Origin: a virus
Lineage: Duplodnaviria; Heunggongvirae; Uroviricota; Caudoviricetes
Length of the DNA: 42,877 nucleotides
IMG/VR virus record: IMGVR_UViG_2671181012_000022
Direction: 5' to 3' (one strand)
The position numbers were made by a program. This document shows, piece by piece, positions 3,001 through 6,000 of the stretch (position 1 is the stretch's first letter; each line of letters starts with the position of its first letter).

Positions 3001-6000
3001 TGTTTGCGCATTGATGCTGAGATACGCTTCCAGTCTTCGCGATCCTTGTCGATAACCTCATTTTTAGCCCAGCGATGGATGGTACCGTCAATGTTTCCTG
3101 CATCCACATCCCCGGGCCAGAGGGCGCAGGCCAGTTCTTTATCCAGTGTTTTCCATGTCTGCCTGTATTCGCGACGAATGGCTGTAGTGACAGGGTTGAT
3201 TTTTGCTGCTGAGTTTTCGGTGAGGTGCTGGTTAACTCTGGTGCGTGCGAGATCAACAACAGACGTATATTTTCCGGTTTCCTTGCGTTCACCTTCGCGA
3301 CGTTTTTTCCAGATGCGCATCTCTGCCTGAATTTCTGGCCATTTGGCACCAGGCTTACATTTATGCTTAACCCACCCGATGGCATGCAGTTTAATCTCCG
3401 GATACATGGCGTTAACTTCTGGCATTTTCATCAACGCTTCAACGATATGTCCGTCGAAGGTTGCCATGTCTTCCTGCAACAATTCCTGTGCGCTAATCAC
3501 CATATCAACGGTGATGTTTTCACATGTGTCGAACTTAACCATGACAGCGTTCTGTACTTCAGGGGACAGCTTGTCAAAAGTGACGTTCATCGGATCTGAT
3601 TCAGTCTCAACCGGGACAAAGGAAGCAGACTCCTCATCCCAGCGGTTTTCCAGCATATATTCAGCATCCCAGGAGTCGAGGGCTGGGCGGTGTGTACCGG
3701 GTTTATCCTCACAGACAAGAAATTTATAAGCGCAGTCCTGAGCAGCCGGATAATGTTCAAGGAATTGCCAGTGAAATTTTGCGCGGGCGCGACGTTCATC
3801 ACCGGCTTCAATGGCAGTGGCCACAGCAACAGCGCCCTCGTTTTTTATTGCCTGTTCGTCAGGAATGGCGGCGCAAATAAATATTTTACTCATTGTGTTT
3901 AAACCTCATTACAGATTTCAGGGTGAACGAATCCCTGCCATTGCTGGCATTTTTAATCCGTTGGTATGGCGTTAATATGGCTGGTGGGTTATCCAGCCGG
4001 TGTTTCGTTATTCAGGTACAGCGATACTTTGTTTAACGGGAGGCATTCACCAGAAATTTTTTGCTCGTCTCTTGCCTGGAGGCAGGATTCTTTACTGGCA
4101 TAAATTCCGGTAATCACATTCTGTGGCTCACCTGTTATAAGAAAAACCGTCATCATCAGTGCAAACGCTGAACTCACTGCTGCCCTCCGAAAATGCCAAG
4201 TTCAAGAAGGGCAATTCTGGAGAGTATGGAATTATCATTGAGAAGATAAGGCTCATATTTTCTCATCCTGATGGCGTCCTCAGTAAACTCCCGGTTACTG
4301 AGCAGAATACCAATATTAAAACACCCTTCAGACGTATTAACGTTTGGTAGTGACGTTTCCATTATCGCGTCCTCAACAATGAATTTTGTGATGTGGTGCC
4401 TGGTGCCTCCAGGTGACGTTAACCAGTTAACAATTAACGCCGGATTGTTAGTTGATGTCTGTTACGCCAGTAAAAGACCGCTTGTTTTAACTGTTCCGCG
4501 TGCGCTTAGCCGCATTCACCGCATCACAAAATACACTTTAAAAATGGCGGATATCCATTTCCGCCGAATCACCAGAAAAGTGATAACAGAGGTTGTTGTG
4601 GCGGTGTTGTCACTCAGGTGTATGGTCAACCTGACAACCCGGTGCATTTTCTGGAGCAATGGAGGAAGCCCCAGCCATACTTACCGCCGCGCCATTTCGC
4701 GGATTGCCACAACCGGAAGCGCACGATCGAATTACATTTAACGACGACATATACAGAGAGACTAACTTCGCCGAGCGCTTTCGTGTTGTGTGCCTGCTTT
4801 TAACCACGTCAGGCGAGGTGGACCTGTTATTCCCCAACAACAAGGATCTTGTTAATCTGGATATCCCCAACAACAATAAGAGTATTGAATGTGATCGCTG
4901 AATTAACGGCAGCAATGACGGCTATTCGTGAAACCGCTCAGATTGCAAAACTAATGAACGAGGCAAAAACTCAAGCTGAAGTAAATGCGGCTATTGGTGA
5001 ACTGAACTCAAAGCTTGCATCTATTCAGCACGAATGCGTGTCTCTCGTTGAGCTGGTGAGCACTTATCAAGAAATAAATGCTTCTCTCAAAGCTAAAATT
5101 GCAGAATTTGAAAACTTTGAGGCTCAGACGGAAGGTTATATCCTTAACCAACTTGAGTCGGGAACTTTTGTGTACTCGAAGGAGGTAACCGTGAACGGCG
5201 GCAGCATAATCATGCATCTTTGTCCAAAATGTTTTGGACAAAAGATAGTATCGATACTTCAACCATTCCCGGTTAGAGAATATGAGTTTTTTCATAAAAG
5301 CAGGTGCCTCTACTGTGAAAATCAGTTTCTTATGAATAAAAATCCGGATTATGTATCGCCTCCATCTATTGAGGAGTTGGCCAGAAAACTGAACGGCAAT
5401 CTGTAGATTGTTACTGTTATGGATATCCAGATTGTTAAAGAGCATGCCGGATGCTTGCTTGTGTCCGGCGCGTGTGCACCAGTTCTCCCCGTGGAGGATT
5501 CCTTAACTACCAGACTTCATTAGTCAGAGTTTCTTGCTAACCAGCGACGCGCGCCAGCTTCGGTTTTAAACTTTTTACTTTTGGTATACGTCATCGCGGT
5601 AAACGTGCCGTCCTGGTTAGGGAACACACCGCATACCAGAGATTCGTTGTTGCCAAGATTGAGCGTATCCATGTTGACCTCATTTCCCCTTAACGCCGGG
5701 GTAGCGGAACTAAAAACCTGCTGCGCTGTTATACAAAGTGTTCCCGCCGTCATGTTCATACGCCTCGGGCTGGCTACTTAACCCCTGACCACTGCCTGGT
5801 AACTCGAAGTATTGCCTGGCGTTCTGTGGGGCGGGGTGGGTTGGTTGACATAATGTACTTGTTGTTCATTAATGTAAAGTACTTTTAGTACATTTTTGTG
5901 AGGGATAAAATATCAGGAGGGGATGAGAGGAGCATAAACCCGGAGGGAAGCTACCGGATTTATGCAGATTCAGGAGGCTTTTTGTTTTTTCTTTCGCGCT

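Follow-up and report, generated by a model that had tools for sequence, protein, structure and literature searches.

A rip1-like gene in a dicB-type prophage operon lies behind a leader homologous to the P22 sieB promoter and sas region

IMG/VR virus record IMGVR_UViG_2671181012_000022 is a stretch of 42,877 nucleotides from a member of the Caudoviricetes, the whole of which is called the window below. On its plus strand, at 4891–5406, it carries a gene that runs against a dicB-type operon resembling that of the Qin prophage of Escherichia coli K-12. This opposite-strand gene is real and, judged by sequence comparison and predicted fold, its product is a member of the Rip1 (ring interacting pore 1) family. 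We consider it likely that the protein acts as a single-protein abortive-infection pore of the Rip1 type, which would be expressed in the lysogen from a PsieB-type promoter and would probably be silenced by antisense RNA upon induction. The analysis shows homology, a predicted fold, a conserved cassette and a homologous promoter; that the lysogen expresses the gene, what triggers the protein, that it forms a pore and that antisense RNA silences it are inferred. The original prediction had described a plus-strand open reading frame (ORF) of about 170 aa with a coiled-coil N-terminus and a CPKC...CLYC motif in AT-rich DNA. This description proved accurate in all its parts, and the function, which had been given as unknown, can now be addressed because the protein is placed as a Rip1 homologue. 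The gene and the open frame opposite to it are as follows.

4891–5406, plus strand: rip1-like gene, 171 aa, GTG start; helices predicted for residues 2–24 and 28–79, followed by a beta-rich domain with Cys111, Cys114, Cys139 and Cys142
5008–5445, minus strand: open frame of 145 aa, antisense to the rip1-like gene and its shadow

ORF listing returns the plus-strand frame as 4849–5406 (185 aa counted from a TTG codon). GTG at 4891 is the start that the Prokaryotic Genome Annotation Pipeline (PGAP) assigns in E. coli FHI_NMBU_11, which has an identical stretch (WP_000559919.1, ‘hypothetical protein’, 171 aa), and this codon is kept in relatives along with the AAGAG sequence 8 nt 5′ of it (4878–4882). 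CPKC corresponds to residues 111–114 and CLYC to residues 139–142; all four cysteines are invariant in an alignment of 28 relatives. The GC content of the ORF is 41.3%, compared with 46% in the flanks and 51.2% in the whole window. Close relatives of the plus-frame protein number 119 in Enterobacterales, and 3354 representative clusters were matched at E ≤ 1e-3 in a library of 1.84 billion proteins. Comparison with four relatives yielded 7/3/16, 40/29/76, 38/18/56 and 60/35/97 substitutions at codon positions 1/2/3. Substitutions thus concentrate at third positions of the plus frame, which is codon-level constraint on the rip1-like gene, and the comparison comes out in favor of the plus frame. 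The antisense frame at 5008–5445 was rejected as a gene. It is a codon-for-codon, in-register shadow of the rip1-like gene, has no family match in Pfam or PHROG, and stays open only because codons 5, 21 and 40 are the sole places where the sense gene has TTA, CTA or TCA. Two small ORFs at 4659–4901 (plus strand) and 4610–4915 (minus strand) were likewise discarded, since they had no significant family match (one marginal PHROG match, E = 0.022); leftward from about 4745, this region aligns to non-coding Qin sequence 5′ of dicF.

A scan against the PHROG families placed the window protein in phrog_1244 (E = 1.2e-57), together with Rip1 of phage HK446 (2.2e-53) and gp30 of Pseudomonas phage JBD30 (2.7e-61). 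In BLASTP comparisons it shares 30% identity over 153 aa with JBD30 gp30 (E = 1e-20) and 27% identity with HK446 Rip1 (gp37; E = 3e-13), and the four cysteines are all aligned in both pairwise comparisons. A profile constructed from the 28 relatives matches 9oox_L, ‘ring interacting pore 1’, over nearly its full length (E = 2.1e-23). By its title, PDB entry 9oox contains Rip1 together with the small terminase of T6. An AlphaFold (AF2) model of the window protein with a predicted local distance difference test (pLDDT) score of 86 suggests that the N-terminal 80 residues form two long helices. When this model was submitted to Foldseek, only chains of 9oox fell below E = 1e-3 (6e-7; template modelling score normalised to target 0.53–0.72). 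The N-terminal helix is amphipathic, with a hydrophobic moment (muH) of 0.40–0.44 for residues 7–30, no 18-residue window of the protein exceeds a mean hydrophobicity of 0.34, and no membrane-spanning segment is predicted. More distant relatives were detected by tblastn in the phage genomes HK620 (hkaP), HK629/HK630 and HK446 and in the Mu-like Pseudomonas phages JBD30, DMS3, D3112 and MP38. A literature search for ‘HkaP’ returned only unrelated word matches.

Rip1 has been described by Patel et al. (Nature 651:1060, 2026), and our statements on its mechanism draw on secondary sources and on the title of the PDB entry. In the passages of a review that concern it (PMC13434031), Rip1 appears as a prophage-encoded single protein that is non-toxic alone. 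Escapers are located in the portal for phages of Pseudomonas and the small terminase for coliphages. Twelve Rip1 monomers encircle the 11-mer ring of the small terminase; the N-terminal part is an amphipathic helix and the C-terminal half touches the ring. The complex forms a pore, with dye release from liposomes and premature lysis, according to the same passages. In agreement with this mechanism are a meeting report and an article of 2026 in Nature Communications (PMC12908700, PMC13601566). The predicted build of the window protein, an N-terminal amphipathic helical part followed by a C-terminal domain of the Rip1 fold, is the same, and no partner gene accompanies the rip1-like gene across its contexts, as befits a single-gene prophage system. 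With HK446 Rip1 and the JBD30 gp30 type of Pseudomonas Casadabanvirus it shares membership in phrog_1244, a length of 164–171 aa, the two-part build, the four aligned cysteines, and its nature as a single prophage gene whose transcription runs counter to that of the phage operon around it. HK446 rip1 and HK620 hkaP are situated on the opposite strand within the pL operon, JBD30 gp30 on the opposite strand between terminase genes, whereas the window gene resides in a dicB-type (Qin-like) operon and not in an N-cIII or inter-terminase slot. Conservation among relatives amounts to 55% in the N-terminal half, 38% in the C-terminal half and 26–31% after residue 126, and it is also the C-terminal half, the putative sensor, that has diverged most from the characterised Rip1 proteins. 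Such a difference between the halves would be expected if a conserved effector were coupled to a sensor engaged in an arms race. RAZR and other ring-activated defences resemble this arrangement in that, as far as the review passages describe them, a zinc-finger domain docks around a portal or packaging ring (PMC13434031). RAZR differs in having a HEPN RNase effector and not a pore, and no sequence or fold match between it and the window protein was found.

The second line of evidence concerns the leader of the gene, which contains the following features.

4831–4843, plus strand: box 1, TCCCCAACAACAA; overlaps the putative −35 region (TTCCCC, 4830–4835) and is kept in about 20 loci
4850–4858, plus strand: putative extended −10 region, TGtTAATCT, placed by homology, since it lines up with the −10 end of PsieB as annotated in P22
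4864–4876, plus strand: box 2, TCCCCAACAACAA; begins at about the putative transcription start and is followed by the Shine-Dalgarno sequence AAGAG (4878–4882)
4792–4821, no strand assigned: element GCCTG-N13-CAGGC-N2-GGTGG, near-invariant, 5′ of the promoter; its columns are invariant in alignments of 8 and of 21 loci
4783–4895, minus strand: sas-like antisense segment, spanning the start codon, the 5′ untranslated region (UTR), the promoter, both boxes and the hairpin

The original prediction had reported two direct repeats just upstream of the gene. They are indeed present as exact copies of TCCCCAACAACAA, 33 bp apart from start to start. No further copy exists in the window even when one mismatch is allowed; the chance expectation is 0.10 copies, and two or more copies occurred in none of 100 shuffled sequences. 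They appear as the boxes of a promoter and antisense-RNA cassette and not as a free-standing repeat. BLAST of the leader against phage genomes led to the annotated sieB promoter of P22 (BK000583). Box 1 aligns with the first ACCCCTACAG box within that promoter, and the P22 sieB RNA start is annotated (BK000583) at the A directly before the second CCCCTACAG box. By analogy, the window transcript would start near 4864 and have a 5′ UTR of about 27 nt. A relative (locus L009) has TATAAT at the position of the −10 region. Homology of the leader to the experimentally mapped P22 sieB promoter is in line with the earlier suggestion that the gene is independently regulated.

The leader, 105 nt including both repeats, is conserved in several enterobacterial genera, and more strongly so than the protein itself. 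It is found alike ahead of relatives that share only 59–71% protein identity and are located at unrelated sites. HK446 rip1 and HK620 hkaP share the hairpin element, TGCCTG(T)CTTTTAACCACnTCAGGCnnGGTGG, which is followed there by two direct repeats reading ACCCCTACAG. The minus strand of 4792–4821 is the counterpart of the 3′ hairpin part of P22 sas RNA and lies inside the published sas sequence. That sequence, a P22A-sas RNA of 127 nt from RNA-seq, reaches from the start codon of sieB across the two boxes as far as the hairpin element (PMC13397905). It is the reverse complement of the P22 region that aligns to the window leader, and by sequence the minus strand of the window from 4895 to 4783 is the homologue of the P22 sas region. 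The likeness to P22 sieB/esc/sas (Ranade and Poteete 1993; BK000583) includes homologous promoter, leader and sas region as well as position and orientation in the early-left operon, and the window gene, like sieB, would be a moron of the abortive-infection type expressed from the prophage. The P22 SieB protein is unrelated. It belongs to phrog_1301/phrog_6399, neither of which is matched by the window protein. Met9 and Met22 occur in the window protein; neither is conserved in the family alignment as an Esc-type internal start.

Two further observations were made on the boxes and the hairpin element. The two boxes of a pair are identical within a locus and differ by clade, reading ACCCCTACAG twice in P22, HK620 and HK446 and TCCCCAACAACAA twice in the clade of the window, with an intermediate form in Symbiopectobacterium (boxes at 4831–4876 in the window, 3880–3925 in locus L004 and 1544–1587 in locus L028). 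The change of the box pair between clades looks concerted. In PPompW prophages, which occupy the same ompW site, the element GCCTG..CAGGC..GGTGG was also seen alone, with neither boxes nor cargo, in the space that separates ydfC from the gene following it (PPompW_132418; L030, 2501–2532). It could be a leftover there or mark a boundary of recombination.

The sieB-type leader is not confined to sieB and rip1, being also present ahead of SfIV gp36 (phrog_5286; L029, 2108–2542) and of F1055_0037, an 83-aa protein of Salmonella phage F1055 (L031, 1608–1859). Both are candidates for further exclusion or defence genes. A more far-reaching and rather speculative idea is that of a portable self-silencing module, made up of the hairpin element, the pair of CCCC-ACA boxes, the weak promoter and a sas-type segment, that has been combined with at least four unrelated cargoes (SieB, Rip1, the phrog_5286 protein SfIV gp36 and F1055_0037), with antisense RNA made early in the lytic cycle sparing the prophage its own Rip1. 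Box identity might then itself be selected, for instance if the boxes gave the 5′ end of the mRNA two places to land on the antisense RNA, or if they were the sites of an unknown regulator. Another conceivable role for the C/A-rich boxes is that of GcvB-type target sites or of translational enhancers within the 5′ UTR.

The edges of the cassette are marked by an inverted repeat and a hairpin.

4854–4866, no strand assigned: left arm, AATCTGGATATCC, of a 13-nt inverted repeat bracketing the gene
5421–5442, no strand assigned: right arm, GGATATCCAGATT (5421–5433), plus conserved GTTAAAGAG; 15 nt past the stop codon, 3′ edge of the mobile unit, invariant in five contexts and in more besides
5446–5469, no strand assigned: GC-rich hairpin, GCCGGATGC...GTGTCCGGC, with no T-run; the same in the other dicB-context copy

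The inverted repeat is found in full (13–14 nt) in about six loci from several genera (those named are the window, L010, L013, L014, L015, L017 and L026), and shorter versions of 9–11 nt are found in two more. On a minus-strand read-through transcript, its arms could pair across the whole antisense segment. At the position of the hairpin, a canonical intrinsic terminator is found in most relatives (AAGCGTCC..GGGCGCTTTTTT). Leader, gene and 3′ element together make up a unit of 663 bp (4783–5445) that resides in unrelated prophage slots. In Salmonella it lies between cro and replication genes, in Citrobacter between xis and cI, and in PhiR49_1 and CPS-53-like remnants between yfdP and cI; it also occurs in dicB-type operons, among them a further one of E. 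coli. That the gene had been acquired, as originally suggested, agrees with the occurrence of this unit of about 660 bp in such different positions. In every context examined it opposes early lytic genes. A promoter recognisable by homology, a GC content of 41% against 46–51% in the surroundings, varied prophage slots and, in relatives, a canonical terminator characterise it as a moron in the sense of Juhala et al. (2000).

Of 5426 complete E. coli genomes, 648 (about 12%), O157:H7 strains among them, contain the 663-bp unit at a coverage of at least 80%. Some 1150 further complete genomes of the species contain a partial cassette only, mostly the first 39–93 nt. In O157:H7 strain FRIK2069 (L033, 3088–4125), a cassette with 97.7% identity abuts a truncated exonuclease pseudogene; dicB and DicF have been deleted there and rip1 is intact. 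The cassette was also found in a CPS-53-like remnant with a truncated integrase. Since it is kept in decaying prophages, we argue that it benefits the host.

The genes and sites surrounding the cassette are these.

5520–5672, minus strand: ydfA/DUF1391 homologue, opening the early-left operon, which is read through rip1 in the antisense direction
5878–5850, minus strand: promoter-like site 5′ of the ydfA homologue
4174–4362, minus strand: dicB, by PGAP annotation of the identical stretch
3989–4177, minus strand: DUF1482/ydfD, next after dicB, by PGAP annotation of the identical stretch
4540–4585, minus strand: shortened DicF-like small RNA (sRNA) with an intrinsic terminator stem at 4565–4546
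5970–6389: repressor

BLAST against K-12 Qin aligned 5711–5527 with the ydfA region (89%) and 4745–4309 with the dicF-dicB region (82%). Because the matches end at 4745 and 5527, window positions 4746–5526 stand in for ydfB and ydfC, just as the original prediction had it. Flanks and intergenic sequence are 82–89% identical to the Qin operon (ydfA-ydfB-ydfC-dicF-dicB-ydfD), from which the window differs in its shortened DicF and in having the rip1 cassette, on the opposite strand, in place of ydfB-ydfC. The minus-strand homologues named earlier were recovered for ydfA, dicB and ydfD; for dicF only the shortened variant was found. It retains the ftsZ-pairing seed TTTTCTGGTGA and the terminator and is missing about 19 internal nucleotides compared with Qin DicF. 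Rfam family DicF (RF00039) yielded no match at E ≤ 1 in 3800–6600 or at E ≤ 10 in 4480–4700, and none was annotated by PGAP. Directly 5′ of the DicF-like sRNA (window 4540–4609, minus strand) the motif CACAACA is present along with a sub-threshold match to the anti-GcvB sRNA AgvB (15 bits, gathering threshold 56). The spacer between DicF and dicB (4330–4547, minus strand), which is about 90% identical to the Qin spacer, gives a sub-threshold match to the Salmonella sRNA STnc100 (33 versus 47 bits, E = 9e-5).

The window as a whole is a lambdoid prophage beginning with int-xis, and in the identical stretch of FHI_NMBU_11 the integrase adjoins ompW. Its own small terminase (27496–28059) has no relative in the PDB, the T6 chain of 9oox included. 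The portal is annotated by PGAP as a ‘frameshifted’ pseudogene in a related strain. In the window, an ORF of 459 aa (31915–33292, plus strand) contains a complete Phage_portal domain (8e-82), and a second, separate ORF of 407 aa follows (33255–34476, plus strand). The region probably comprises two genes like B and C of lambda, and the prophage may be intact. Embedded among the tail genes (41244–42398, plus strand) is a full-length porin gene of the Gram-negative type (Porin_1, 2e-144; annotated ompC in a related strain), likely another moron. Three tRNA genes (16677–16926, plus strand) have the anticodons CAT (Met according to ARAGORN, Ile according to PGAP), TCG (Arg) and TCT (Arg). Their position 3′ of the Q antiterminator region is the one seen in lambdoid phages of the Stx type. 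DNA methyltransferase genes and hokD are annotated nearby in a related strain.

In the mechanism that we propose, 4783–5445 is a self-contained moron cassette directed against the early-left operon with ydfA, DicF-like sRNA and dicB. In the lysogen, the repressor would hold the early-left promoter off and the weak sieB-type promoter would yield Rip1, which should be harmless alone. Upon superinfection, the zinc-ribbon-like C-terminal half would bind a ring oligomer of the incoming phage, either small terminase or portal. This ring would nucleate a ring of Rip1, whose N-terminal amphipathic helices could then assemble into a membrane pore, and the infected cell would collapse before progeny mature, i.e., by abortive infection. 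Upon induction, transcription from about 5850 would pass through ydfA, run antisense through rip1 and its leader and continue to the DicF-like sRNA and dicB. A sas-like RNA arising from this early-left antisense transcription would, by analogy with P22 sas, shut off Rip1 synthesis. We assume that it originates by processing of the early transcript.

Several results weigh against this mechanism. A scan for consensus promoters did not flag the leader, as the −10 region is below threshold, and by consensus the promoter is weak. Neither in the window nor in P22 did such a scan find a minus-strand promoter for a sas-like RNA. RNAalifold predicted three short hairpins for 21 minus-strand leaders with hardly any compensatory change (covariation term −0.19), so that covariation support for a sas-like structure is absent, and the window segment folds no better than shuffled sequences (z = 0.17). 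The canonical terminator of the relatives is missing from the window copy. No model for the protein is contained in Pfam, NCBIfam or PADLOC 2023; in Pfam at E ≤ 1 nothing rose above the curated cut-off and only weak coiled-coil matches (E 0.03–0.14) were seen. Finally, the window allele is only 27–30% identical to the characterised Rip1 proteins, from which its trigger is deduced by homology.

The weak promoter and the lack of a canonical terminator would also fit an intact gene that is nevertheless silent, i.e., a passenger acquired recently and serving no present function, or one expressed only in other hosts. We regard this as unlikely, because the frame is intact and under codon-level constraint, the cassette, found in 12% of the complete E. 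coli genomes, persists in decayed prophages next to truncated neighbour genes, and across genera its leader shows stronger conservation than the protein. Nor do we think it at all probable that the protein acts by classical superinfection exclusion, blocking the entry of incoming DNA instead of forming a triggered pore. Such a role would agree with the annotation of HK620 hkaP as ‘putative superinfection exclusion protein’ and with a listing of JBD30 gp30 among morons giving phage resistance, where the entry, which cites Tsao et al. 2018, reads ‘blocks phage genome injection’. However, the review passages have Rip1 acting late, with escapers in portal and small terminase (PMC13434031), the 9oox complex contains T6 small terminase, and a membrane-spanning segment is not predicted for the window protein.

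Long helices followed by CxxC...CxxC bear a superficial likeness to coiled-coil C4 zinc-finger proteins of the DksA/TraR type, and such a regulator, or another regulatory or lysis-timing factor, might serve the resident lytic cycle. This is very improbable: the Pfam scan of the window protein contained neither zf-dskA_traR nor any other accepted match, Rip1 is the sole specific fold match, and the gene opposes the lytic operon wherever it was examined. Least credible of all is translation of the minus-strand ORF as part of the ydfA-dicB operon with an incidental plus frame. A frame of 145 aa does exist on the operon strand, and long antisense open stretches occur in most relatives, but its first codon position is the most variable one, and it is the plus frame that has a solved homologue. 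A Rip1-type pore protein made by the lysogen remains the reading that we prefer.

The Rip1 family itself is already known, and the window protein adds a member to it. Beyond this, sequence comparison points to a modest addition: enterobacterial lambdoid Rip1 genes appear to ride on the P22 sieB/sas promoter-antisense cassette, of which the two repeats are the conserved boxes, so that a single regulatory cassette would serve several different exclusion genes. How a prophage could keep from killing itself with a sensor of this kind is suggested by the connection to the sieB/sas leader of P22. A ‘hypothetical protein’ that about 12% of the complete E. coli genomes, O157:H7 strains among them, encode at near-identity becomes readable as a Rip1-type defence. 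This reading predicts which phages, therapeutic ones included, such strains may abort, with small-terminase or portal rings as the class of trigger.

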